Shown here one piece after another: positions 21,543-55,487 of a stretch of DNA of 64,000 nucleotides. The notes under the pieces are model-generated. The model made no database searches. It was given only the letters and a program-made list of their open reading frames with translations, and was not told the origin of the DNA. The stretch is from an uncultured Bacteroidia bacterium (lineage in GTDB: Bacteria; Bacteroidota; Bacteroidia; NS11-12g; UBA955), in contig CALKCM010000008.1 in NCBI GenBank assembly GCA_938086785.1, forward strand, positions 71,500 through 135,499. Reading direction: 5' to 3'. The position numbers were made by a program, and so were the translations under genes. Each line of letters starts with the position of its first letter. The first letter of the stretch is position 1.

Positions 21543-22016
21543 TTATTGGCCTTTATCCGGGAGTTCTTGAATATCCACTTCACCAAGCAACTCAATAAAA
21601 TTAGTTCTATCCAACTTGCTCGTATCCACCAATGGAATAGATTTAGTTGTTATCTGTATTTTGCCAATTTTAGGCCCGCAGTTTAAGCTGTCCTTTAAGC
21701 CTATCGCATCTTTAGTGGTTTCAATCTTTCCTATGGTAGTTTGGTGTCGGTCAAGCCCATTGCAGGCCCATATAAGTGGGGCTAATAGTATTGATGTAAT
21801 GTATTTCAATTGAAACCCTTTTTTAGGTTTGTTGAATGACATGCGACCACATACATTCTTCTCTTTGATGGTTTTTATGTAGTCAATGATTTCTTCATGG
21901 CTTTTGCTAGTAAAATCAATAACTGTTTTACTGCAAGCATTGCAAAATGAGCCATTTTTATTAGGCTCTAGTTCATCCCAATTCTTATCGCAAGGTGATT
22001 TAATAATGGCTTTCAT
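21543..22016 (-). CDS. Membrane protein with N-terminal Cys-rich (zinc-ribbon-like) module
   Basis: 157 aa. CDKNWDELEPNKNGSFCNACSKTVIDFT is followed by one hydrophobic segment, YITSILLAPLIWAC. Confidence 0.55.
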   Translation of the reverse strand: MKAIIKSPCDKNWDELEPNKNGSFCNACSKTVIDFTSKSHEEIIDYIKTIKEKNVCGRMSFNKPKKGFQLKYITSILLAPLIWACNGLDRHQTTIGKIETTKDAIGLKDSLNCGPKIGKIQITTKSIPLVDTSKLDRTNFIELLGEVDIQELPDKGQ

Positions 22017-22057: not shown

Positions 22058-22546
22058 TTAATCGTTGAAGGAGTATAGGAATACTAAAGTGGCATCCAGA
22101 GCAGGTTTAGCATTACCCATAATTTCTAAAGTAGCTTTTACTTCTACTTTGGATATTCCTCTAAGGTTTACTAAGGAATGAAGTTTAGTTTTTACTCGAA
22201 CGTGACTGTTTACCAAAACAGGCTGATTGAATTTTAATTTTTCAATACCATAATTTACCATCATTTTAGTATTCTTTACGTCGATGATTTGACCCCATAG
22301 AAATGGAACAACACTCAAACTTAAGTAGCCATGAGCTATTGTTGACCCATATGGGCTATCCGTCTTGGCCTTTTCTTCATCTGTATGTATCCATTGATAA
22401 TCCAAGGTGGCTTCGGCGAATTTGTTTACTTGTTCTTGGGTTATTTGTAAATAATCGGAGGTTCCCAACACTTCTCCCACGTATTGCTCAAAGTCCTTAT
22501 GATTATTGATGATTATTTTCCCTGATTTATGTTCAATATTTGTCAA
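22058..22546 (-). CDS. MaoC-like (R)-specific enoyl-CoA hydratase/dehydratase
   Basis: 162 aa. Hot-dog-fold motif DYQWIHTDEEKAKTDSPYGSTIAHGYL. Confidence 0.8.
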   Translation of the reverse strand: MTNIEHKSGKIIINNHKDFEQYVGEVLGTSDYLQITQEQVNKFAEATLDYQWIHTDEEKAKTDSPYGSTIAHGYLSLSVVPFLWGQIIDVKNTKMMVNYGIEKLKFNQPVLVNSHVRVKTKLHSLVNLRGISKVEVKATLEIMGNAKPALDATLVFLYSFND

Positions 22547-43757: not shown

Positions 43758-44894
43758 ATGGGAGTTTATAAACAAGGCTTTGTGTTTGCAAAGTTTAAAA
43801 AAGAGAAACAAGATCCCTTCGATCAATTGTTTACTATTTTTAAAGAGTTGATAACGCATACTTCAGGTGACTTCGATGAAGCCATCGATTGGTTGAGAGA
43901 GTTGGATAAGGAATATCAGCTTACTAGTCCAAAATACACCATTGAAGATTTCATTGAGGATCTTAAAAAACGCGGATATATTCGAGAAGAGTTTGAGGAT
44001 GGGGCGGGTGATGGTTCGGGAGATGGATCATCAATAGTCATGGCTGCTAAGCTTGAACAGGCCTTGCGAAAGAATGCTTTGGAGCAAATCTTTGGAAAAT
44101 TGAAAAAAAGTCAAAAAGGAAATCATAGCACTACTAAGGGAGGAATAAGCGATGATGCTTCGGGAGACTTTAGAGGATATGCCTTTGGAGATGCCATAGA
44201 GCAAATATCTTTAACGGAAAGTTTAAAAAGTGCTCAAATAAATAATGGTATTGGAGATTTCAATTTACAAGAACGCGATTTAGTTGTAGAAGAAACCTAC
44301 CACAAAGCTCAAATGAGTACAGTGCTCATGATTGATATTAGCCATAGTATGATTCTTTATGGGGAAGATAGGATCACGCCTGCTAAGAAAGTAGCCATGG
44401 CATTGGCAGAACTTATTACGAGCCGATACCCAAAAGATACCTTGGATGTAATTGTTTTTGGGAATGATTCATGGCCCATTAAGATTAAGGATATTCCTTA
44501 TTTAAAAGTAGGGCCCTATCACACCAACACTGTTGCAGGTTTGCAACTGGCTATGGATATATTGCGACGGAAAAGGAATTCAAATAAGCAAATATTCATG
44601 ATAACAGATGGCAAGCCGAGCTGTGTGCGCGAACAAAATGGAGAGTATTATAAGAATAGTAACGGATTAGACCCATATATAGTAGATAAATGTTATTCCA
44701 TGGCTGGGATGGCAAGGAAGATGCAAATCCCAATCACCACTTTTATGATTGCCCAAGATTATTATTTGCAACATTTTATAGAGGAGTTTACCAAGGCTAA
44801 TAAAGGGAAAGCATTTTATACTGGGATTGAAGGATTGGGTGAAATGATTCTAAGGGATTTTGAACAAAATAGAATAAAACGACTAAAAGGATAA
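43758..44894 (+). CDS. von Willebrand factor A (VWA) domain protein
   Basis: 378 aa. The MIDAS motif D-I-S-H-S lies in TVLMIDISHSM (nt 44334-44348), with ITDGKPS downstream. A Gly/Asp-rich linker reads EDGAGDGSGDGSS. The stop abuts the ATPase start with a 0-nt gap. Confidence 0.8.
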   Translation: MGVYKQGFVFAKFKKEKQDPFDQLFTIFKELITHTSGDFDEAIDWLRELDKEYQLTSPKYTIEDFIEDLKKRGYIREEFEDGAGDGSGDGSSIVMAAKLEQALRKNALEQIFGKLKKSQKGNHSTTKGGISDDASGDFRGYAFGDAIEQISLTESLKSAQINNGIGDFNLQERDLVVEETYHKAQMSTVLMIDISHSMILYGEDRITPAKKVAMALAELITSRYPKDTLDVIVFGNDSWPIKIKDIPYLKVGPYHTNTVAGLQLAMDILRRKRNSNKQIFMITDGKPSCVREQNGEYYKNSNGLDPYIVDKCYSMAGMARKMQIPITTFMIAQDYYLQHFIEEFTKANKGKAFYTGIEGLGEMILRDFEQNRIKRLKG

Positions 44895-46361
44895 ATGATT
44901 AATATAAATACACTTGGAGCTCTTAAAGCTTCAAAATACAATTCAAAAAACATTAAAGATGAATTGAGAGATAACCTCATTTCTAAGCTGCAGAATAAAG
45001 AACCATTGTTCGCAGGAGTTATAGGGTATGATAACACCGTCATTCCACAAATCAAGAGGGCTATTTTAGCGAAGCACAATATAAACCTTTTGGGTTTAAG
45101 AGGGCAAGCCAAAACAAGGATTGCAAGATCCATGGTTCAGCTCTTGGACGAATACATTCCAGTCGTTGAAGGTTCTGAACTAAATGATGATCCTTACCAA
45201 CCTCTTTCTAGATTTGCAAAAGATCGTCTTGAGGAAATGGGGGATGAAATGCCTATTACTTGGCTGCATCGTGACGAAAGATTTTTTGAGAAGCTTGCTA
45301 CTCCCGACGTAACAGTGGCTGATTTAATAGGAGATATAGATCCTATTAAAGCAAGTAATTTAAAATTATCCTATGCTGATGACCGAGTGATCCATTTTGG
45401 GATGATTCCAAGAGCCAACCGCTGTATTTTTGTGATTAATGAATTGCCTGATTTACAAGCGCGTATCCAGGTAAGTTTATTTAATATCTTGCAAGAGGGC
45501 GATTTGCAAATACGCGGATATAAACTTCGTTTACCCTTAGACGTTCAATTTGTATTTACTGCAAATCCTGAAGATTATACCAATAGAGGTAGTATTGTTA
45601 CTCCTTTGAAAGACAGGATTGGTTCACAAATTTTAACCCATTACCCCAAGGATATTGCCACAGCCAAAATTATTACTCAGCAAGAAGCCAAATTAAGTAA
45701 TAATCAAAGAGATGCTGTTTCTGTTCCTAGCATGGCTTATGATTTAATTGAAATGATTGGCTTTGAGGCAAGAAGAAGTGAATATATTGATTCAAAAAGT
45801 GGAGTGAGTGCGAGGATGAGCATAACGGCCTTAGAAAGTGCGGTAAGTACTGCTGAATTGAGAATGCTTCAGGCCGGCCGGAAATCTACACTTTTAAGAT
45901 TAAGTGACTTTGGAGGGCTTATACCTGCAATTACGGGAAAAGTAGAGTTAGTTTACGAAGGGGAGCAGGAAGGATCGGAAGAGGTTGCCCTGTTGTTAAT
46001 TTCAGATGCAACCAAGACTCTATTCAACTCATATTTTCCGAGTATACCCAAACTGCAGAGAGCAGATGAAAATGGGCCTTATACAGCATTAATTAATTGG
46101 TTTGTCGAAGGAAATCAATTGGAACTTTTGGATACAGACAGTGAAAAAGAATATAAAACAAAATTAAATTCCCTTAGTCCCTTAAATGATCTGATACAGA
46201 AGTATTGTTCTGATCAAAAAGATACGGATGAGGCATACTTTCTAAAAGAGCTTATTTTATGGGGCCTTTCGGCCTATGATAAACTTAGTCGCAAACCATA
46301 CGATGGAGGGAATCAGTTTAAGGATATTGTGGGAAATATTTTAAATGATTTACAGAGTTAG
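44895..46361 (+). CDS. AAA+ ATPase, Mg-chelatase/ComM-like, with deviant Walker motifs
   Basis: 488 aa. The Walker A-like motif is GLRGQAKT (nt 45093-45116). The Walker B-like motif is CIFVINELPDL (nt 45423-45443). FVFTANPEDY resembles sensor 1. Confidence 0.7.
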   Translation: MININTLGALKASKYNSKNIKDELRDNLISKLQNKEPLFAGVIGYDNTVIPQIKRAILAKHNINLLGLRGQAKTRIARSMVQLLDEYIPVVEGSELNDDPYQPLSRFAKDRLEEMGDEMPITWLHRDERFFEKLATPDVTVADLIGDIDPIKASNLKLSYADDRVIHFGMIPRANRCIFVINELPDLQARIQVSLFNILQEGDLQIRGYKLRLPLDVQFVFTANPEDYTNRGSIVTPLKDRIGSQILTHYPKDIATAKIITQQEAKLSNNQRDAVSVPSMAYDLIEMIGFEARRSEYIDSKSGVSARMSITALESAVSTAELRMLQAGRKSTLLRLSDFGGLIPAITGKVELVYEGEQEGSEEVALLLISDATKTLFNSYFPSIPKLQRADENGPYTALINWFVEGNQLELLDTDSEKEYKTKLNSLSPLNDLIQKYCSDQKDTDEAYFLKELILWGLSAYDKLSRKPYDGGNQFKDIVGNILNDLQS

Positions 46362-46389: not shown

Positions 46390-49300
46390 TTAATATAAAA
46401 TATAAACAACACCCACTTTCTGTCTCCAAGATTGTTTTATGGTTCTATACTTAAGTTGGTAGGTATAAACCCCCTCAGGGCAATTTTTCCCTTGAAAGGT
46501 TCCATTCCATGAGAATTTGAGGTCATCGCTTTTGAATACGATCTCACCCCAACGGTTGTATATCAGCAATTCTATTTCAGTAGGCCCATAAGTAACGATG
46601 TTAAAGGTTTCGTTCTTGTCATCCTTGTTTGGTGAGAAAACAGTAGGAGCGAATATAAGAATGGTGTCTTTATAACATATCGAACCAAAACTACTATCAA
46701 TACAACCCCCGTTATTTTCAATAACAAGTTTTATCGTATAATTACTTTTAGATCCATCATAGGTGTGTTTTGGATTATCTCCTGGTATATACGTCTCCGT
46801 ATTTCCATCGCCCCAATCCCAGGTTCCTTTGGTCCCACCAATACTTCCATCAAAAAGAAATAATTCCGGTTGAATGTTTGTTATACAAGGCAAGCTATTT
46901 GGAATATATGTAGTGAAATCAGCGCTTATGGCTTTGAATCCTGGTATATAAACATTGGTGTCCGAAGAGCATCCCGTAGCTTTATATGTTGCATTTAAAC
47001 GATAGGTATTCCCTGCATTTTCATAAATAGAATCCAGAAAACTTTTGGGGAATGTATTCCATTCAAAATTAAGTAGTGACGGATTTGGAAATTCTACTTT
47101 TGCCCATCCCTTTCTTCCAAAACAAACTGGAGCAGAGGTTTGAATATTAAAATAGGGCCTCGGATTGACTTTAATAGTCACCGTATCCTTAGCATCATTA
47201 CTGCAACCATCGCTGAGAGTTCCTGAGTACAATGTAGAAGAAAGAGGGTATACAAATGTTCCAGGGCCTGTTTGTCCGTTGCTCCATTTAACCTGATGAT
47301 CCGGAGGGTTTCCACCAGCTGTTGTAGATTTAAGCCAGACGATTTCACCCGGACAGATTTCATCAGTATCCAAGTCTATCACTATTTTAAGCGTATCCTT
47401 AACGGTTACATCTAAGTTCGCATAAGATGTACAGGTTTTCTCGATGTACTCGTATTGCAATTTGTGAGTTCCCGAACCTGCCAAATTTGGATTAAATGAA
47501 CTTCCTATAACACCAATCCCAGAAAAAGTGCCACCTATTTTTGAGGCTTCAAGGGGGAACGCCTGCGTCTTAAAACAATACTCATTTGGAGTATTGGTGA
47601 ATACAACAGATGGTTTTGCATCAACTTTTACTTTAAAGTTTGCTTCACAGCCAAAACTGTTGGTATACGTAATGGTATGGTTCCCAGCTCCTGCCGTACT
47701 TGGTCTAAATAAACCTTGCGTTTTATTTATAATTCCAGGGCCAGAAAAGCTGCCACCAGCTTCTTCCCTGTAGCAGGAGAAAACCGGAGCATTAATACAC
47801 ATAGAAGTATCAGACTGTACAATAGGCTTAGGCCTTACAAAGGCATAAAAAGTATCCGTACAGTCATTAATGTGGTAAACTAAGGCATGATATCCGTATC
47901 CCGCTGTTGAGGCCGTGAAAGTATCTTTTCCAGTAATTCCAGATCCTGTCCAAAACCCTCCACCAGTGGATGGGAATAATTTGGTGATAGCATAATTAAG
48001 AACAACCGGATTTTCTTCAAAGCAGACTTTTAACGTGTCGGTATGACTTACGCTTGTTTTTGTAACATAAACATAAGTTTGGTCCTTGCATTTTGATGAG
48101 CTTATTTCTAAAGTATCTCTATCAAAAGCATTGGTGCTATTTATATAGACGCTTGGGTCGTATTCGTTTCCAGTGGGGTTTGTAATTCCTTTTCCTTTGG
48201 TCCACGTATAGTTAGATGTTGGGATAAAACCGCTGAGTGTTTGAAGTCCTGCGCTTGGGCAGAAATAGGATACGGGTCCTGCATCAATTCCGAGAATGGT
48301 CAGGTATGTGGTGTCCTTGCATCCTCCTCCATTCCAAGTAATAAGCTTGGTTTGAGGCCCTCCCATTGCGCTGGGATTGTATCTGCCCCAATAGCTATTG
48401 GTTAGTCCAGGGAACCAAGATGGATAAATTCCTAAAGGTGAAAAAGTGAGGGTTTCACTGGTGCTATTCTCACAAGCAGTATCAAAACGAGGTACCGTTA
48501 TTTTGGTAATAACTTCAACATCTTTAGAGACGATACAACCGTTCCAATTGTAGGATAATTTATATATCCCTGCAGTGCTGTCTGGATCAAAGACTCCATT
48601 AGGAGTAGTTCTGAGTCCTGTAAAAACACCTCCTCTGGGGTAATACCACCAAAGGGCTCTGGCAGGAGTTCCTTGGCAAAACACATTGGGCAAGCTCCAT
48701 GCGCCTCTACTATTTACTTCTAAAGTATCTGCACATTTTCCTATCTGGTACCAGGCCTTTCGAACTCCTCTAAACGTTCTGGGGTTATATTCTCCTGTTG
48801 CGGGGTTCACAATTCCTGTACCACCCCAAGTTCCTCCTGGAGGACTGGCTTTAAGGAAGAAATTAGCACTGGCGTTGCAGACCATAGTATCATTTTGGGC
48901 CACGGGCGGACTTAGTACATTGACGGTAATCGTATCGGCACTTGGAATAGAAATTCCATCAGTAACTTTAAGAATATATGTTGTTTTAACATTTGGGCAT
49001 ACGGTATGGGGTCCCGCGCCTTTTATTATGGAAGGGGTCCAGGTGTAAATGTATTTTTTTGAATCTCCACCACTGACTGTTGCTATCAACTTAGTGCATG
49101 AACCTATGCAAAGCAGTGTATCGTCTAATGTCAGCTCAACGGATAGGGGACAGGTGAGTACATCAAAACGCACCAAGGAATTTCGAGTATAACTTTCACC
49201 ACAGAAATCCAACCAATTGGTGGTTAAATTAAAGGTATACCTTCCGTTTAAATTTACTGCGTTTATAAAGTTGACTGTGAAGGTTTTTGTATATCCCTTA

Positions 49301-49893
49301 ACACACCCTGTGGGAGTAATGCTAGCTATACCAAGATTCTTGGGTCCTGTTAAGCTTGCGTTTCCTAATAAAAAGGAATCACAATTAATGGCAACATTAC
49401 TGCGAATTTTAAACGATTTGTCTAAACATGCAACAGTACCTACACGAAAAAATCGTGGGGTAGGAGGTGGTATAATATCTGTACTTAAATCGGCTTCCCA
49501 ACCCGTACATGAAACACTTTTATCTGATTTGAAATGAAGGGTGATGCAACTGTCTGTACTTATAATTGTTCCTGGTCCATTTATTCCACTCCACCTTCCT
49601 AATACTGTAGAATTTGTGTCTTTCCCATCAAAAATACTAAGAATATCTTCATCTTTTTCAGTACAGAATGATGTGAATTTTAGCGTGAGATTTTTAGCTC
49701 CTGGGACGCATATAGTCATGACATGATTCTCATTATGAGCATAGTCACCTGTGGTTAATCCTTCTTCTGAATCTTTAACAGTAGCCTCACAAATTCTCAC
49801 TACTCCTGTATGCATGAGCACTTCAGGTATCTGACTTACTATTGGTTTCAGTCCAAAAACAAGTAAAAGTGATATGAGTATTTTTTTAGTCAC
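46390..49893 (-). CDS. Giant Cys-rich surface protein: CUB-like domain, repeated Ig-like modules, PKD domain, T9SS type-B (gliding motility-associated) C-terminal domain
   Basis: 1167 aa with signal peptide MTKKILISLLLVFGLKPIVSQ. Domain evidence is given in the sub-features. It is the last gene of the six-gene operon. Confidence 0.85.
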   Translation of the reverse strand: MTKKILISLLLVFGLKPIVSQIPEVLMHTGVVRICEATVKDSEEGLTTGDYAHNENHVMTICVPGAKNLTLKFTSFCTEKDEDILSIFDGKDTNSTVLGRWSGINGPGTIISTDSCITLHFKSDKSVSCTGWEADLSTDIIPPPTPRFFRVGTVACLDKSFKIRSNVAINCDSFLLGNASLTGPKNLGIASITPTGCVKGYTKTFTVNFINAVNLNGRYTFNLTTNWLDFCGESYTRNSLVRFDVLTCPLSVELTLDDTLLCIGSCTKLIATVSGGDSKKYIYTWTPSIIKGAGPHTVCPNVKTTYILKVTDGISIPSADTITVNVLSPPVAQNDTMVCNASANFFLKASPPGGTWGGTGIVNPATGEYNPRTFRGVRKAWYQIGKCADTLEVNSRGAWSLPNVFCQGTPARALWWYYPRGGVFTGLRTTPNGVFDPDSTAGIYKLSYNWNGCIVSKDVEVITKITVPRFDTACENSTSETLTFSPLGIYPSWFPGLTNSYWGRYNPSAMGGPQTKLITWNGGGCKDTTYLTILGIDAGPVSYFCPSAGLQTLSGFIPTSNYTWTKGKGITNPTGNEYDPSVYINSTNAFDRDTLEISSSKCKDQTYVYVTKTSVSHTDTLKVCFEENPVVLNYAITKLFPSTGGGFWTGSGITGKDTFTASTAGYGYHALVYHINDCTDTFYAFVRPKPIVQSDTSMCINAPVFSCYREEAGGSFSGPGIINKTQGLFRPSTAGAGNHTITYTNSFGCEANFKVKVDAKPSVVFTNTPNEYCFKTQAFPLEASKIGGTFSGIGVIGSSFNPNLAGSGTHKLQYEYIEKTCTSYANLDVTVKDTLKIVIDLDTDEICPGEIVWLKSTTAGGNPPDHQVKWSNGQTGPGTFVYPLSSTLYSGTLSDGCSNDAKDTVTIKVNPRPYFNIQTSAPVCFGRKGWAKVEFPNPSLLNFEWNTFPKSFLDSIYENAGNTYRLNATYKATGCSSDTNVYIPGFKAISADFTTYIPNSLPCITNIQPELFLFDGSIGGTKGTWDWGDGNTETYIPGDNPKHTYDGSKSNYTIKLVIENNGGCIDSSFGSICYKDTILIFAPTVFSPNKDDKNETFNIVTYGPTEIELLIYNRWGEIVFKSDDLKFSWNGTFQGKNCPEGVYTYQLKYRTIKQSWRQKVGVVYILY
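46393..46662 (-). other. T9SS type-B sorting domain (gliding motility-associated C-terminal domain)
   Basis: The last 90 aa read FAPTVFSPNKDDKNETFNIV...LLIYNRWGEIVFKS...SWNGTFQGKNCPEGVYTYQLKY. This fits the FTPNGDGxNDxF ... RWGxxVF ... WxG ... GxYxY pattern. Confidence 0.8.
46663..46929 (-). other. PKD domain
   Basis: FDGSIGGTKGTWDWGDGNTETYIPGDNPKHTYDGSKSNYTIKLVIEN fits the PKD pattern WDFGDG...H.Y...G.Y.V.L. Confidence 0.7.
49483..49806 (-). other. CUB-like domain
   Basis: Residues ~30-137: CEATV..GDYAHNENHVMTIC...LTLKFTSFCTEKDEDILSIFDG...VLGRWSG...ISTDSCITLHFKSDKSVSCTGWEA. This matches the CUB layout F..F.lE...D.l.i.DG ... l.F.SD.s....GF.a. Confidence 0.6.
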
Positions 49894-49895
49894 GT

Positions 49896-50336
49896 TTATT
49901 TTCGAATGGTAATCTCAGGAGTTCGAATACTATTGCTCCAATGACCTGCTCGATCTCTTATGCGAATATCATAGGCAGCTAATTCGGTGTTTCCTGTGCC
50001 AATAAGGAAGAGGCTTTTAAGTTCAATTTTTAACTGGCCCGAAATTTTAACATTTGCATTATCTGGGGCTAGAGGTGCTATAAAATAGTAATCGGGCTTA
50101 GGTAGCCTGCTATCTTTGATTTCCAATGATTTTTTATCTGGATCATTTTCCCCTAAATCTGCATCGCCATCGGTGTAATTAATGTAGAGATAAACGGAAT
50201 CATCAAATTCAGAAATAACTGTTTTTGTAAACCGATCAAACCCAATGCTTGGTATGGGGTCATTTGCTACTGTTTTCTTCTTACAAGAAACCGAGGATAT
50301 CATAAGTAGACAGAATATAATTCGGATCACTTTCAT
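49896..50336 (-). CDS. Small lipoprotein (hypothetical)
   Basis: 146 aa with lipobox LLMISSVSC and a possible Ca-binding-like YTDGDADLGENDPD. The gap to the upstream gene is 0 nt and to the downstream gene 2 nt. Confidence 0.6.
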   Translation of the reverse strand: MKVIRIIFCLLMISSVSCKKKTVANDPIPSIGFDRFTKTVISEFDDSVYLYINYTDGDADLGENDPDKKSLEIKDSRLPKPDYYFIAPLAPDNANVKISGQLKIELKSLFLIGTGNTELAAYDIRIRDRAGHWSNSIRTPEITIRK

Positions 50337-51269
50337 TTATTTTATCTTGATTGCAAAGTATTTTTTAAGAAAGAACATGCTATTTTCATTGGGTATATTG
50401 TAATTTAGGTTTACGCCGTCATCGCAACTCATTCTAAACCATATAACCTCTCCCGAAACATAACCAACGGTGTTAAAATTATAAGACCATTGGTGGTTAA
50501 CTGAACCCGTATATAAGCCCGGGAGGTTTTGGCCTGGGGACTTTGTTAACGGCTCAAACGTAGCTTGGCTATAATCATCAGGATTAATGGACCACATTAT
50601 TTTCATATTTGAAAGTTGGTCTTGACTTAATTTGTCGTCGGTTAAAGAGAACCACAAGGTTAGGTTGATATTTGCATCAACCAAAATAGGTTCATATTTG
50701 CCTCCTCTATTTTGCAATACTCCACCATTTCGGGCATTTACTCCCAATATTTGGGGTGGAAAATCAGCAGCGGTCCTTGTGTTTCCATCTAAGTCAGGAG
50801 CTCCTGCATTAATCCAATCTTTTATATTTTGGATATGTTTGTCCTTGTGGATGGGATAATCATTATCTGGATTAACGATCAATGGCATAATTCCAGAGTT
50901 TCCGCCTAAATCAACGGTCATTCTGTGGATTAACATGCTGGCATCAGCATTGCCTGGAACGACTCTATATTCAAAAGTTTGTAAGGGGTCTGGTTTAATA
51001 GGTGCCTGATTTATTAAGGTATTAAAACTACTTTCAGCTGTTCTGAAATCAGGTTCAAAGGTTCCATCATGGCAGCCGCTATTGGCACAGGTCTTAATAA
51101 AAATATTTTTGTGAATTCCTTCCAAGGAGGTGGCACTTGGCTCTGTTCCTCTAAAAGTATCAATGTCTCGGATAATGTTATCATAGGGGTTGTTTACCAC
51201 ACCTGTGGTTTTACTGCAAGAAATGATTGTTGTTGCAACAGCCGCAATAATAAAAAGTGCTTTTTTCAT
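50337..51269 (-). CDS. Lipoprotein with PSCyt1-like (planctomycete cytochrome c-like) segment and CX4CH motif
   Basis: 310 aa with lipobox VATTIISC. CANSGCH lies at nt 51069-51089. It is followed by RVVPGNADASMLIHRM...GIMPL...IQNIKDWINAGAPD. Confidence 0.6.
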   Translation of the reverse strand: MKKALFIIAAVATTIISCSKTTGVVNNPYDNIIRDIDTFRGTEPSATSLEGIHKNIFIKTCANSGCHDGTFEPDFRTAESSFNTLINQAPIKPDPLQTFEYRVVPGNADASMLIHRMTVDLGGNSGIMPLIVNPDNDYPIHKDKHIQNIKDWINAGAPDLDGNTRTAADFPPQILGVNARNGGVLQNRGGKYEPILVDANINLTLWFSLTDDKLSQDQLSNMKIMWSINPDDYSQATFEPLTKSPGQNLPGLYTGSVNHQWSYNFNTVGYVSGEVIWFRMSCDDGVNLNYNIPNENSMFFLKKYFAIKIK

Positions 51270-51275
51270 AATTGC

Positions 51276-52619
51276 TTAGATCCTTTCAAATAGTGATTTT
51301 CCCATGGGGTCTACGAGTCCCGCATTTTTAACATCGTCCCACACTCCAAAAATATCCGCAATAGTAGGAACAATATCAGTGAGTCTTCCAACAGGGTTGG
51401 CTTCGTTTCCAACAGACATCCCTTGCGGTACATTTTTTCCAACCATTAAGGACCAAACCCTTTGGGCGTTTCGATCGGAGTGATCAAAGGCATACCAATC
51501 ATTTTGATCTAATATTGGATTTGGATTAAGATTTCTTCCGCATTCTGGAGCAACTAACATAATTGTATTTCCAGCCATTTCTGGTATTTGAGTTTGTATA
51601 TAATTCCATAGCCAACCTGTTGCATGATCTGCGCGATGCAGATTTTTAAGGTAACCCGTGAAATTTGAATGGCAGGTGTCTACGCCGGTTAAATTAACCG
51701 TAAGAATTTTCGGTTTGAAATATTTAAGCACCTCCGCTCCATACGAAATATTAAATGCATCTCCACTTCCAACGGGAGGAGAGGCAATTTGCCCTGAACT
51801 TTGCTTGGCATATATGTATTTGATAAACTCTTTTATTCGGGTCTTATCTTCGTCTGTATTTGTAATGGTATTTATTTCATCTTGACCTAAACCAAAGGAC
51901 TTATCTAAGAAATTTTTCATGAAATACATGGGTCCTAATTCCTCTTGGCTGTATGTTTTGCTATTGCCTAAAACCTCTCTACCATAGGAACCAAATACAA
52001 CACCAGGAACAAACATATTTGCTCCATATTGCAACCCGTAATCTGGGTGATCGCTTGAATTTAGAAGGTTGTAACTATTGGTCAAAGAGCTACTAATCAT
52101 CCAACAATCTGTTGCAGAAAAGCCTGCATGTCTTCTTAAATATTCAAATATAGTAGGGTAGTTTGGTCTTACTTTTAACCCTTGTGCTGCGCTTCTATTT
52201 CCTGTCACTAAAACAGTTTGACCGGTATAATGGCCAGCACTTTGGGCAGCCACTTCTCTAAAGACTGTTCCCTGGCTTTCTAATGAGCTTCCTAAAAGTT
52301 GAGGGATCGGCACACTACCTGCGGTTCCGCCTCCAGCTGGATCCGTTCCATATACGATTTTTTTCGTTGGTGCTGGGCCGTCAAATAGATTGAACATAAC
52401 ATTTCCTGCGGCTCCAGAAACTCCTTGAGAATCCTCAAGGTATCGTTGTAGTATACTTTCTTGTTGACGAACTCCTCCAGCAAACATTACTAAAACAACG
52501 TGTTCTGCCTTGGGTACTCCTCCTCTGGCAAACAAGCTTCCTGATGGGAGTATGTAGGGCAAAGCTGCTCCTCCAGCCACCCCTAATCCTGCTTTTTGTA
52601 AAAATTCTTTTCTTCTCAT
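51276..52619 (-). CDS. DUF1501 family protein (sulfatase/alkaline phosphatase-like fold) with twin-arginine signal
   Basis: 447 aa. The Tat signal is MRRKEFLQKAGLGVAGGAALP. HVVLVMFAGGVRQQE and APECGRNLNPN...DHSDRN follow, a layout typical of DUF1501 as I recall it. Confidence 0.7.
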   Translation of the reverse strand: MRRKEFLQKAGLGVAGGAALPYILPSGSLFARGGVPKAEHVVLVMFAGGVRQQESILQRYLEDSQGVSGAAGNVMFNLFDGPAPTKKIVYGTDPAGGGTAGSVPIPQLLGSSLESQGTVFREVAAQSAGHYTGQTVLVTGNRSAAQGLKVRPNYPTIFEYLRRHAGFSATDCWMISSSLTNSYNLLNSSDHPDYGLQYGANMFVPGVVFGSYGREVLGNSKTYSQEELGPMYFMKNFLDKSFGLGQDEINTITNTDEDKTRIKEFIKYIYAKQSSGQIASPPVGSGDAFNISYGAEVLKYFKPKILTVNLTGVDTCHSNFTGYLKNLHRADHATGWLWNYIQTQIPEMAGNTIMLVAPECGRNLNPNPILDQNDWYAFDHSDRNAQRVWSLMVGKNVPQGMSVGNEANPVGRLTDIVPTIADIFGVWDDVKNAGLVDPMGKSLFERI

Positions 52620-52620
52620 C

Positions 52621-53118
52621 TTAGTAATATTGATACTCGTTACACACTGACATGGCTGTAAAAACCATTTCTACACTCACTTTGGCATTTCCTCCAATAT
52701 AATTTTTGAAAAACAACTTCTCGGCTTCATTGGGATATCTTAGAAAAAATTTCTTGTAGGAATTTTCAACAAAGGCATCTATATCATTTCGCATATCTGC
52801 ATCAGAAGGAATAATAACTTGCCCTGTATTAAAATAATTACTGAGTAACATTTCATTTGCTACAGACCTATCGCCAATACTCACCAAAACAGTTTGGGTT
52901 TTAAATAATTGATTAGGAGATATTGGTTTTTGATATAGGTTTGTATAGAGGATAGAAATGTATTCAGCCTCAGACTTATTTTTTATCTTACTTGTTCTTT
53001 CATCCTGAATTAATTGTTCAGCAACTCCAAACTCGGCGACCTTTTCTTTTTTACAGCCCAACGAAAGAGCCATAAATCCTAGAATTAAAATTTTATTTAA
53101 ATTGTGCATACTCATCAC
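52621..53118 (-). CDS. Lipoprotein with two DUF1549/DUF4214-like motif copies
   Basis: 165 aa with lipobox FMALSLGC. The motif copies are YISILYTNLYQKPISPNQL...LLSNYF and FVENSYKKFFLRYPNEAEKLF...VCNEYQYY. It overlaps the upstream gene by 26 nt. Confidence 0.6.
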   Translation of the reverse strand: MMSMHNLNKILILGFMALSLGCKKEKVAEFGVAEQLIQDERTSKIKNKSEAEYISILYTNLYQKPISPNQLFKTQTVLVSIGDRSVANEMLLSNYFNTGQVIIPSDADMRNDIDAFVENSYKKFFLRYPNEAEKLFFKNYIGGNAKVSVEMVFTAMSVCNEYQYY

Positions 53119-54010
53119 TTATACAAATTGGTAATTGTACATCCTGTAGTTGTTCACTTTGTCTGTACGTTTTATAAATATCAGCTACCTCACTCGTTCC
53201 GGCATCTCTTCTAAGAAGAATATAATACATCCAGCGAATTTGTGCTTCGTAGAACTCATTGGCTTTTGTTAGTACGGAGCAATACTCTGTTTTATTACTC
53301 GCCCAGCTATTGAAAAGTTTTGTAGGTACATTCTTGTCAATGATTTCGATGCCTTCTAAAAGCTCTGACCCACTTGGATTTCTATTTAATACGTCATCAT
53401 AGGAGGCATTTACAAAATTGAAACTATTCATATTAATCTGATCATAGATGTTATTATCGAGCATTGCTACACACATTGCACTATAATCAATTACACCTGT
53501 CCTAAGCCTATATTTACTCAAAGTAACTTTTCTAATTTTATTGATGGCATCAAGAGACTGAAAAACGCGGACGGAGTCTCCTTCAAGACGAGCTATTTTA
53601 AGAGAGAACGATAAGTTCCCTACAATTCTATTAAACTCGCCATCATCTGCACCATCTACAAAGCGTGCTTTACTTAAATTATAAATTCGCTCGTGCCAAG
53701 CATGCATATAGCTACTATCGCCCTCTCGATATTCAGTACTGTATTGCAGCGTTTTAATTAGATTTTTTCGAGTATTTGTATCTAAATCGTTATTGATTAG
53801 GGAATCTGTAAAAAGATTGCGTTCAACATTGGTAGCCTCCCTTCCCAGGAGGTCTATGTAAAGTCTATTTACATAATTCTCAACAATAATAGTTGGCACT
53901 CCGCTGTAATCAGGGGGAATGTTTCCATCTACTTTTACTTGATCTTGCTTTGTACAACTGGCAGCAGTTATTGCTGTCAGCAGTGTGATTCCAAAATAGA
54001 GTTTATTCAT
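53093..54010 (-). CDS. Lipoprotein with three DUF1549/DUF4214-like motif copies
   Basis: 305 aa with lipobox LTAITAASC. The motif copies are YVNRLYIDLLGREATNVERNLF...LQYSTEY, FVNASYDDVLNRNPSGSELL...ANEFYEA and WMYYILLRRDAGTSEVADIY...ISDEYAQF. Confidence 0.6.
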   Translation of the reverse strand: MNKLYFGITLLTAITAASCTKQDQVKVDGNIPPDYSGVPTIIVENYVNRLYIDLLGREATNVERNLFTDSLINNDLDTNTRKNLIKTLQYSTEYREGDSSYMHAWHERIYNLSKARFVDGADDGEFNRIVGNLSFSLKIARLEGDSVRVFQSLDAINKIRKVTLSKYRLRTGVIDYSAMCVAMLDNNIYDQINMNSFNFVNASYDDVLNRNPSGSELLEGIEIIDKNVPTKLFNSWASNKTEYCSVLTKANEFYEAQIRWMYYILLRRDAGTSEVADIYKTYRQSEQLQDVQLPICISDEYAQFK

Positions 54011-54227: not shown

Positions 54228-54264
54228 AAAAAAAGGCGCCTTTTGGGAAAAGGCACCTTTTTGT
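54228..54264 (-). terminator. Rho-independent terminator after the tandem OMP genes
   Basis: 14-bp stem 54231-54244 / 54248-54261 (aaaaggcgcctttt / aaaaggcacctttt, one mismatch) with loop ggg. A/T runs lie on both sides. It is 19 nt past the stop at 54283. Confidence 0.65.
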
Positions 54265-54282: not shown

Positions 54283-54870
54283 TTAAAACTTAAAGGAAAG
54301 ACCTCCTTGTACAATTGATTTTGCAAAGCCTATTTCAGCATATAGCCCAATGTTCTCGCTGAAAAAGTAGCGAGCTCCCAAAGTAGATTCTAGTCCAATT
54401 GGAATTGGGTTTGAAAAGGATACATTTGAATCGTCTGGATCATTGGTAGTCCATTTGCTTGTAGATGTTCCATATCCTACTCCAACTCCCCAGAAAGCAT
54501 CAAATGTTTCCGAACTGAAAAAGTGAATATTTACTCTTGCATTAAACTTAGTGCTACTGAATTTTAACTTGTAATCATAGTTATAAAAATCCTTATAACT
54601 AATGCTGGATGCAACATGATTAATGCTTAACCCTAAGCCAATTCGATCTGATACAGCATGTTCATATTTTAAATGAATGGGACCATAGCCTTTAAGAGCA
54701 TAGTCGTTTTCATCTTCATAGACTTTAAAGAGTGTCTTATTAAGGTTAGGAGCGCCATAGCCGGCCGAAATAATGTTACTTCCAGTCTCAAATGCTTGAG
54801 CTTTAAGGGATGATTTTTGTGTTAGTGCGAAAGCAAATAACACAGCTGATGGTATAATATATTTTTTCAT
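54283..54870 (-). CDS. Outer-membrane beta-barrel protein (OmpW/OMP_b-brl-like), paralogue 2
   Basis: 195 aa with a signal peptide ending KAQA, alternating beta-strand pattern and C-terminal GGLSFKF. It is clearly paralogous to the upstream gene. Confidence 0.75.
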   Translation of the reverse strand: MKKYIIPSAVLFAFALTQKSSLKAQAFETGSNIISAGYGAPNLNKTLFKVYEDENDYALKGYGPIHLKYEHAVSDRIGLGLSINHVASSISYKDFYNYDYKLKFSSTKFNARVNIHFFSSETFDAFWGVGVGYGTSTSKWTTNDPDDSNVSFSNPIPIGLESTLGARYFFSENIGLYAEIGFAKSIVQGGLSFKF

Positions 54871-54896: not shown

Positions 54897-55487
54897 CTAG
54901 TACAACTGAAATACAATTCCTGCTTGAGCTAAGGATTGTGCAAAACCCACTTCACCGTAGATTCCAACGTGTTGCGAAAAATAGTACCTGGCACCAAGCG
55001 TAAACTCAGCGCCTATTGGAATAAACCCACTTACTTTGGTTTCTATAAAATTAGTATCAGTAGAGGACCATGTCGCAGAGGTTGAGTTATATCCCAGTCC
55101 TATTCCAACATAAGGGTCAAATTTAGTAGAGTTTCCAAAGTGTAAATTCACTCTGGCATTAATATCTAAACTGGTATAGTTAAGACTGTTTACATCTGTA
55201 ACGTCCCAAATGCTTTGATTGTATGACATTACATTGTTAGACAGGTTCGCGTTTATTCCAATTTCAATATTGTCACTGGCTGCAAAACCGTATTTAGCAT
55301 GGTAAGCTCCAAAGCCTGTAACCTTATAATTATCAAAATTTTTGTAGATTGAAAAGGCTAAAGAATTTAAAGTTGGGGCTCCGTAACCGAAGGAAAAGTT
55401 GTGGTCTCCTTTTTCGTAGGACTGCGATTTTACGGATACGAATGGAAGCAATAGTAGGTTTAGTACCATTAGGTATTTAATTTTCAT
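54897..55487 (-). CDS. Outer-membrane beta-barrel protein (OmpW/OMP_b-brl-like), paralogue 1
   Basis: 196 aa with a signal peptide ending VKSQ and C-terminal AGIVFQLY. Blocks shared with the paralogue include GYGAP.LN, NARVN.HF, G.G.GY..S and PIG.E.TLGARY.FS...G.Y.E.GFA. Confidence 0.75.
   Translation of the reverse strand: MKIKYLMVLNLLLLPFVSVKSQSYEKGDHNFSFGYGAPTLNSLAFSIYKNFDNYKVTGFGAYHAKYGFAASDNIEIGINANLSNNVMSYNQSIWDVTDVNSLNYTSLDINARVNLHFGNSTKFDPYVGIGLGYNSTSATWSSTDTNFIETKVSGFIPIGAEFTLGARYYFSQHVGIYGEVGFAQSLAQAGIVFQLY

Follow-up and report, generated by a model that had tools for sequence, protein, structure and literature searches.

A widespread family of Bacteroidota lipoproteins with a PSCyt1-like domain and a CX4CH motif as candidate haem c site, encoded in a conserved six-gene cassette

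Results

The CX4CH lipoprotein and its domains

The stretch of DNA analysed here, 64,000 nucleotides long and hereafter called the window, covers positions 71,500 to 135,499 of the forward strand of contig CALKCM010000008.1 (assembly GCA_938086785.1), which belongs to an uncultured Bacteroidia bacterium. On its minus strand, at 50337..51269, lies a gene for a 310-residue lipoprotein in which a PSCyt1-like cytochrome c domain is followed by a C-terminal immunoglobulin-like (Ig-like) beta-sandwich. The gene is the fourth in a row of six (A to F) and is referred to as gene D. The N-terminus of its product, MKKALFIIAAVATTIISC, reads as a signal peptide with a lipobox (residues 1-18, ...IIS-C18; 51216..51269, minus strand), and Cys18, the residue predicted from the sequence to be lipidated, is invariant in an alignment of 118 family members and present in 98% of a larger set of 291.

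The cytochrome c-like domain, as delimited by hhalign against PSCyt1, by hmmsearch and by a domain-only AlphaFold2 (AF2) model, spans residues 42-168 (50766..51146, minus strand). Within it, the minus-strand codons tgt gcc aat agc ggc tgc cat (51089->51069) encode C61-A-N-S-G-C66-H67 (51069..51089, minus strand), which both its sequence and its conservation mark as the predicted haem c attachment site, with CX4CH instead of CXXCH spacing; C61 and C66 would be the two thioether cysteines and H67 the proximal histidine. Downstream of the motif follow RVVPGNADASMLIHRM (residues 102-117), GIMPL (126-130) and IQNIKDWINAGAPD (146-159), elements that read RVVPG..S.L..R, GIMPL and WINAGA. The M128-P129 pair in the second of them (50883..50888, minus strand) is, from its conservation and its alignment to PSCyt1, the predicted source of the distal axial methionine ligand. 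A first-pass annotation of this DNA had already read residues 61-67 as C-A-N-S-G-C-H on the minus strand and had noted PSCyt1-type elements, GIMPL among them, after the motif; both the open reading frame (ORF) and the codons confirm this, and the span that it proposed (50790-51107, residues 55-160) nearly equals the domain as delimited here.

The AF2 model of the full-length protein reached a mean predicted local distance difference test score (pLDDT) of 84, with N-terminal helices at residues 49-55, 61-64, 78-85, 112-118 and 138-154. Modelled separately, the domain gave a pLDDT of 83 and a predicted template modelling score of 0.82, and was again helical with N- and C-terminal helices; its helices 8-14, 37-44, 71-77 and 97-113 correspond to protein residues 49-55, 78-85, 112-118 and 138-154. 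The C-terminal part (residues 170-310; 50340..50762, minus strand) was modelled as all-beta with a pLDDT of 88-97, and it dominated the Foldseek matches of the full-length model. These matches were just generic Ig-like ones with E about 1e-3, namely the sulfite oxidase C-terminal domain, the PPAD Ig-like domain, the Wzt carbohydrate-binding domain, RhoGDI and NPC2.

A six-frame search of the window for C-x4-C-H in open stretches of 90 codons or more returned the motif of gene D and no other. One CSGCH at nucleotide 22103 (minus strand) was considered as a second haem motif and dismissed, as it precedes the start codon of a 157-residue ORF (21543-22016) and falls inside a 162-residue ORF (22058-22546) in a different frame; it is not a cytochrome motif.

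Relation to PSCyt1 and other haem c domains

Genuine PF07635 proteins were collected and aligned as the PSCyt1 reference for hhalign. This reference set, like the DUF1501 set used below, was fetched with consensus-like query sequences, and only database proteins carrying a precomputed Pfam label were compared. The domain profile of gene D matched the PF07635 alignment with 94% probability and E=1.2e-7 over the segment RVVPG..S.L..R...MP...WI..GA, and M128 fell on the invariant methionine (M-P-P) of PSCyt1. At a relaxed setting, the match extended collinearly over the whole domain, with C61 placed on the first cysteine and C66-H67 on the CH of the reference, and the sole difference within the cysteine motif was a two-residue insertion in gene D. 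The first-pass description of the segment as PSCyt1-like is thereby borne out by a profile-profile comparison, though the Pfam model itself remains silent.

Two proteins stand as natural intermediates between the gene D family and PSCyt1. P0312 (589 aa) matches the target profile at E=2e-34 and contains five tandem repeats with the motifs CATAGCH, CAGCH, CVSSGCH, CATSGCH and CAISGCH, while P0380 (960 aa; E=1e-25) carries three CHRD domains followed by five repeats, four with CNGCH and one with CAICH. Both also exceed curated Pfam thresholds. P0312 scores 51.6 bits for Cytochrome_CBB3, with the best stretch at 46-139 covering the first (CX4CH) repeat, and 45.7 bits for PSCyt1, with the best stretch at 400-458 inside the fourth (CX4CH) repeat; P0380 reaches 40 bits for PSCyt1. 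CX4CH and CXXCH thus alternate among clearly homologous sister repeats in which the histidine and the methionine are kept, as would be expected if both forms bind haem.

When the repeats of P0312 and P0380 were combined with the gene D family into a mixed profile (A10), a search of the PDB returned both haem domains of FoxE (5mab) at E=4.1e-11, with CX4CH aligned to CXXCH across a two-residue gap. The same profile matched the C-terminal haem domain of hydrazine synthase alpha (5c2v_A) at 1.7e-4 and, weakly, cytochromes c6. The PSCyt1 profile alone also found FoxE (E=2.3e-6) and, because PSCyt1-type profiles match 5mab, FoxE seems to be an example of the PSCyt1-like domain type with a solved structure. 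The NCBIfam model TIGR03806 gave a graded series of values, from E=0.005 for gene D through 1.6e-4 to 2.8e-4 for distant family members to 1.4e-8 for P0312, in each case in its second haem domain. Given the profile-profile match, the intermediate proteins and the match to FoxE, residues 42-168 of gene D are, on this comparative evidence, homologous to PSCyt1-type cytochrome c domains.

Conservation and distribution of the family

At E<=1e-3, gene D has 1189 homologues in a large protein collection, all of them named 'hypothetical' and none with a Pfam domain; the nearest, at 97% identity, comes from a metagenome-assembled genome (MAG) labelled 'Bacteroidia bacterium'. When the domain profile (residues 42-168) was run exhaustively with hmmsearch against 1.84 billion representative proteins, 767 matched at E<=1e-3, of which 300 reached <=1e-10 and 89 reached <=1e-30.

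Conservation was assessed on 291 pooled, non-identical full-length members with identities down to about 35%. Only 21 of the 310 positions are conserved at 97% or above, and C61, C66, H67, M128 and P129, each at 100%, are among them. The cysteines are separated by four residues in 289 of the 291 members and by five (CX5CH) in one, and the pattern search found no motif in the last one. In the 118-sequence alignment, the invariant positions include C18, C61, N63, S64, G65, C66, H67, D68, G69 and F71-R76, and further R102, V103, S111, R116, S125, G126, M128, P129, W152 and G156. The two sets thus answer in the affirmative a question that the first-pass annotation had posed, namely whether orthologues retain C61, C66 and H67 together with the four-residue spacing. 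The consensus of the motif across the family is C-[A/S]-x-x-[G/A]-C-H. CXXCH is absent from the entire length of all 120 closest homologues and, unlike in multihaem cytochromes, there is one C-x(n)-C-H motif per protein.

In a scan with one genome for each species, at least 545 genomes encoded a relative. The best 80 of these are all uncultured Bacteroidota MAGs, many of them from lakes, with host labels comprising Flavobacteriales, Saprospiraceae, Chitinophagales and 'Bacteroidia'. Some MAGs that bear the cassette described below (L029, L034, L042, L043 and others) are recorded as Rhizobium sp., Bifidobacterium sp., Sphingomonadales or Chitinophaga pinensis; since their gene content is of the Bacteroidota type, with type IX secretion domains, these labels look like submitter mislabels or binning artefacts.

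The six-gene cassette

Gene D is embedded in a run of six minus-strand genes, A-B-C-D-E-F (46390-54010), a context that was not part of the first-pass annotation. The run encodes four lipoproteins, one protein with an N-terminus resembling twin-arginine translocation (Tat) signals and one type-IX-secreted CUB protein, and from A to F neighbouring genes overlap or lie at most 6 nt apart. Synteny was sampled in 84 related Bacteroidota loci, using stretches of up to 17 kb with 8 kb of flank on each side, and the order A-B-C-D-E-F was kept in all 84 wherever the contig extends far enough. A literature search found no publication on this cassette.

Gene C (51276..52619, minus strand), the most conserved gene of the cassette, encodes a 447-residue DUF1501-like candidate with a Tat-like N-terminus. 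In 82 of the 84 loci the contig includes gene C, and in all 82 it lies directly upstream of D, with 49-70% identity. Its invariant residues are D314, H317, H328, D331, H332, E359, G361, R362, N363, D379 and H380. Pfam matches of its orthologues were weak and scattered (Sulfatase in 3/27, TAT_signal in 4/27, Phosphodiest in 1/27), the Pfam DUF1501 model did not match gene C, and a search for PDB sequences, with gene C alone or as a profile, returned no match. Aligned by hhalign to real DUF1501 proteins, gene C gave 364 collinear columns at P=0.0013 and 18% probability, with VDxCHsNF set against GWDTHxxNF and PECGRN against GEFGRT; enlarging both alignments did not improve the result (P=0.0027). 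Among 76 orthologues, the DUF1501 hidden Markov model scored the window protein at E=3.6e-4. The Tat-like motif reads RRxF in 45 of these 76 and RKxF in 30, including the window protein (MRRKEFLQK). Gene C also shares with DUF1501 (PF07394) the Tat-like N-terminus, a similar length (about 445 aa), the position next to a PSCyt-like gene and a collinear set of motifs, with GG near the N-terminus followed by D-x-H...NF, E-x-G-R...N and D-H. It differs in that the N-terminal GGPSxxDxxDPKP of DUF1501 is replaced by GGVRQQES. On these features, protein C is probably a DUF1501-like member of the alkaline-phosphatase superfamily.

Gene A (53093..54010, minus strand) encodes a 305-residue lipoprotein with a DUF4214-type motif and the lipobox AAS-C19. 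Of its 22 orthologues scanned against Pfam, 16 matched DUF4214, five matched PSCyt2 (DUF1549; best E 0.0082) and two matched PSD1 (DUF1553; best E 0.0034), the PSCyt2 and PSD1 matches all lying below the Pfam threshold. Compared by hhalign with PSCyt2-PSD1 proteins, gene A aligned over 45 columns at the motif that opens DUF1549 (40%, P=2.9e-4), a weak sequence resemblance to PSCyt2 and PSD1. The neighbouring gene B (52621..53118, minus strand) encodes a 165-residue lipoprotein with a DUF4214-type motif and the lipobox SLG-C22; DUF4214 matches 17 of 24 orthologues, and an hhalign comparison of gene B with the PSD1 C-terminus was not significant (P=0.059). Genes A and B overlap by 26 nt (53093-53118) and, since a similar overlap recurs in most orthologous loci, their translation may be coupled.

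Downstream of gene D, gene E (49896..50336, minus strand) starts at the base after the gene D stop codon and encodes a 146-residue lipoprotein with a conserved YxDGDGDLG motif, which looks, from its pattern of residues, calcium-binding. It is syntenic in 81 of the 84 loci and has no Pfam or NCBIfam match. Gene F (46390..49893, minus strand), syntenic in 77 of the 84, encodes a 1167-residue secreted protein with CUB (Pfam E=4.7e-10) and PKD domains and a C-terminal CHU_C type IX secretion sorting domain (E=1.1e-17), and its orthologues carry the same Pfam domains. A VWA-domain gene followed by an AAA_5 (MoxR-like) ATPase gene lies on the plus strand at 43758-46361, convergent with gene F.

At the other end, a hairpin terminator with a 15-bp stem and a T run (54230..54262, minus strand) ends the preceding outer-membrane-protein gene and forms the upstream boundary of the cassette. 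Just upstream, also on the minus strand, lie two adjacent paralogous genes for small outer-membrane beta-barrels (Pfam OMP_b-brl; 54283-54870 and 54897-55487), which the terminator (54262-54230) separates from the cassette.

Comparison with known systems

PSCyt1 (PF07635, 'Planctomycete cytochrome C') is the N-terminal haem domain of PSCyt1-PSCyt2(DUF1549)-PSD1(DUF1553) proteins in Planctomycetes and Verrucomicrobia. It has in common with gene D the order of its elements, from the N-terminal helix (I..iF / IRPIL) over Cys-x(n)-Cys-His and VPG..S.L..R to M-P and WI..GA; intermediate proteins satisfy both profiles, and the association with a DUF1501-like gene is plausibly shared. The differences lie in the motif, which is CX4CH throughout the gene D family as opposed to CXXCH, in the segment from CH to VPG, which is longer in gene D, and in the domain architecture, since the domain of gene D has a lipid anchor and an Ig-like domain as fusion partners in place of DUF1549/DUF1553, with the A-like and B-like parts encoded as separate genes. 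The hosts, moreover, are Bacteroidota and not bacteria of the Planctomycetes-Verrucomicrobia-Chlamydiae (PVC) group.

The closest solved structure to the gene D domain is that of FoxE (PDB 5mab), a dihaem c-type cytochrome from Rhodobacter ferrooxidans SW2 and a putative Fe(II) oxidase. The haems of FoxE are His/Met-ligated, and the distal methionine ligands are exchanged between the two domains (PMC10654088). FoxE has two domains, canonical CXXCH motifs, a soluble form and a foxEYZ operon, whereas gene D has one domain, CX4CH, a lipid anchor and another operon. To the dihaem c-type cytochromes of the SO2930 family (TIGR03806), gene D shows a weak, sub-threshold likeness in the post-CH half of the second haem domain, but with 16 bits against a cut-off of 313 it is not a member.

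CX4CH sites of multihaem cytochromes are usually bis-His ligated. In tetrahaem cytochrome c3 and at haem 3 of the anammox hydrazine dehydrogenase, covalent haem is known on the same motif (10.1101/2024.01.05.574438; PMC6469936). Those, however, are single sites in unrelated multihaem folds, whereas in gene D the motif is the only predicted site, lies in a domain that would be class-I-like and of the His/Met type, and is the rule for the whole family.

Discussion

A probable monohaem cytochrome c with an unusual attachment site

The explanation that we consider best, with a probability of roughly 65%, is that gene D encodes a Sec-exported, lipid-anchored periplasmic c-type cytochrome with a single, His/Met-ligated haem and a CX4CH motif shared throughout its family, working within the six-gene unit. 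Haem attachment and ligation, an electron-transfer role and a partner are what we infer from the homology and conservation described above, together with the export signals and the synteny. The protein would be exported by Sec and lipidated at Cys18, and the lipobox with its conserved cysteine implies an export that is compatible with haem attachment in the periplasm. There, haem would be bound covalently to C61 and C66 of the invariant C-A-x-x-G-C-H, the two extra residues being an insertion between the cysteines of an otherwise ordinary site. H67 would serve as the proximal axial ligand and M128 of the M-P motif as the distal one. Because the distal methionines of FoxE are swapped between domains (PMC10654088), M128 might coordinate haem within its own chain or, in the manner of FoxE, in a partner domain or chain. 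The Ig-like domain (170-310) probably docks the cytochrome onto partners, and gene D may shuttle single electrons to or from protein C, the candidate Tat-like, DUF1501-like metallo-enzyme of the unit, or its complex, while protein F would be displayed on the cell surface via the type IX secretion system.

Several observations weigh against this explanation. Curated models do not recognise the domain: a Pfam hmmscan of the window protein at E<=1 found neither PF07635 nor any other cytochrome family, 31 family members gave no match to PF07635 or any cytochrome family at E<=10, and in NCBIfam the sub-threshold TIGR03806 value (E=0.005) was the sole trace. PDB sequence searches with the full-length or the domain profile of gene D returned nothing relevant, and the sole Foldseek match of the domain-only model was FoxE at a non-significant E=1.1. 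Within the hhalign match only the C-terminal half is significant, the cysteine motif being aligned at the relaxed setting only, and AF2 confidence dips at residues 61-70 and 121-130, the presumed haem-contacting regions. Nothing around the gene points to cytochrome maturation either, since a CcsA-type WGxxWxWD motif is absent from every frame of the window, no Pfam family for cytochrome c maturation occurs among the ORFs scanned between 40 and 64 kb, and the window encodes no other CXXCH protein. With regard to the proposed context, the electron-transfer partner of gene D is deduced purely from gene order, the links of gene A to DUF1549/1553 (individual E 0.003-0.008 beside the hhalign value) and of gene C to DUF1501 (P about 1e-3) are weak, and the Tat-like motif of gene C has RK instead of RR in the 30 orthologues mentioned above.

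Live site or relic

The first-pass annotation had offered two readings of the motif, a haem c site of non-canonical form or a relic of the domain without haem. In a relic, C61 and C66 might form a disulfide, or might bind a metal (Zn, Cu or Fe) together with H67 and M128, leaving a structural or binding module. The non-canonical spacing, the silence of the curated cytochrome models, the lowest AF2 confidence at the cysteine motif and the methionine loop, and the quality of Cys, His and Met as metal-ion ligands all fit such a module. So does the lack of maturation genes from the window, which the first-pass annotation had already pointed out and with which the WWD-motif search and the Pfam scan of the 40-64 kb ORFs are consistent. 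From a relic, however, one would expect the loss of one or more of the four residues, or a varying spacing, and instead the residues are kept at 100% in 291 sequences at the fixed spacing. Sister repeats, moreover, swap CXXCH and CX4CH yet keep the histidine and the methionine, and CX4CH sites that bind haem are known (PMC6469936). Since C61, C66, H67, the Met-Pro pair and the spacing are fully conserved in a large and old family, a live haem site is favoured over a relic: the CX4CH of the gene D family would be functional as a haem site, if an unusual one, and not a dead remnant, and we regard loss of haem binding as unlikely.

The maturation machinery is a further consideration for a live CX4CH site. 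System II is the maturation system typical of Bacteroidota. Anammox bacteria, in whose hydrazine dehydrogenase haem 3 is bound via CX4CH (PMC6469936), use the same system (PMC4222556), and CX4CH is listed as a rare but functional haem c motif (10.1101/2024.01.05.574438). A literature search found no publication on CX4CH in PSCyt1-type or Bacteroidota proteins, nor on CcsBA acting on CX4CH.

Function of the cytochrome and of the cassette

A second alternative accepts haem binding but not the role of electron carrier for a neighbouring enzyme. Gene D might instead act as a redox or gas sensor, in haem or iron handling, or catalytically (peroxidase-like or Fe(II)-oxidising), in a cassette unrelated to the PSCyt/DUF1501 genes of PVC bacteria. 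This would agree with the weakness of the A and C links to DUF1549/1553 and DUF1501, with the proposed Fe(II) oxidase function of FoxE, the closest solved relative (PMC10654088), and with the fact that the function of PSCyt genes is unknown in any organism (PMC5615132). It is opposed by the strict synteny and tight spacing with gene C, which argue for a common function, and by the convergence of the resemblances of D to PSCyt1, of A to PSCyt2/PSD1 and of C to DUF1501 on one known gene pair. Domains of the class I type with His/Met hexacoordinate haem are, furthermore, typically electron carriers. We therefore consider this alternative, too, improbable, at about the same level as the relic.

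That a C-x4-C-H and a few short motifs have come together by chance in an unrelated lipoprotein, as the brevity of the individual motifs and the lack of any Pfam match to gene D might suggest, is practically refuted by the invariance of the residues in 291 homologues, the profile-profile E of about 1e-7 and the match of the mixed profile to FoxE at 4e-11, and the motif is, besides, the single one of its kind in the 64-kb window.

Returning to the electron-carrier explanation, the composition of the cassette invites a comparison with the gene pairs of PVC bacteria. Partners of DUF1501 genes are those for DUF1549/DUF1553 and, in other bacteria, DUF1800. In PVC-type reference contigs, a PSCyt2+PSD1 gene was located directly upstream of the DUF1501 gene in 6/6 cases, which fits the reported pairing of PSCyt genes with families of unknown function (PMC5615132). 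Since three independent, weak-to-moderate resemblances (D to PSCyt1, A to DUF1549/1553 and C to DUF1501) coincide in one gene cluster, the cassette is plausibly a split Bacteroidota counterpart of the PSCyt-DUF1549-DUF1553 / DUF1501 module of PVC bacteria, although we would rate the chances of this at somewhat below even. More tentative still is a fuller version, in which a single-copy split PSCyt/DUF1501 module of Bacteroidota would be coupled to a type-IX-secreted CUB protein, whereas Planctomycetes and Verrucomicrobia have such modules in large numbers. Gene D would then stand for the first monohaem family of the class I type in which CX4CH is obligatory, with maturation by System II.

Conclusions

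As judged by its sequences, the gene D family is widespread but unannotated, consists of PSCyt1-like cytochrome c proteins in which CX4CH is obligatory, and is encoded inside a conserved operon. Counting c-type cytochromes by CXXCH or by Pfam misses this family, which comprises 767 representative clusters labelled 'hypothetical' and occurs in at least 545 species-level genomes. If haem is attached, CX4CH would not be restricted to multihaem proteins but could be the fixed and sole site of a simple His/Met domain, with consequences for what the cytochrome c synthase of System II accepts as a substrate.

PSCyt/DUF1501-type gene pairs are abundant in freshwater and marine PVC bacteria, and their function is unknown in any organism (PMC5615132). 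The cassette offers a compact system to probe the function of such pairs in hosts that are abundant freshwater Bacteroidota. Should the fuller version of the split-module reading, with its CX4CH cytochrome, prove true, it would provide a tractable PSCyt/DUF1501 model and, in gene D, a natural substrate for studying how CcsBA handles a spacing other than CXXCH.

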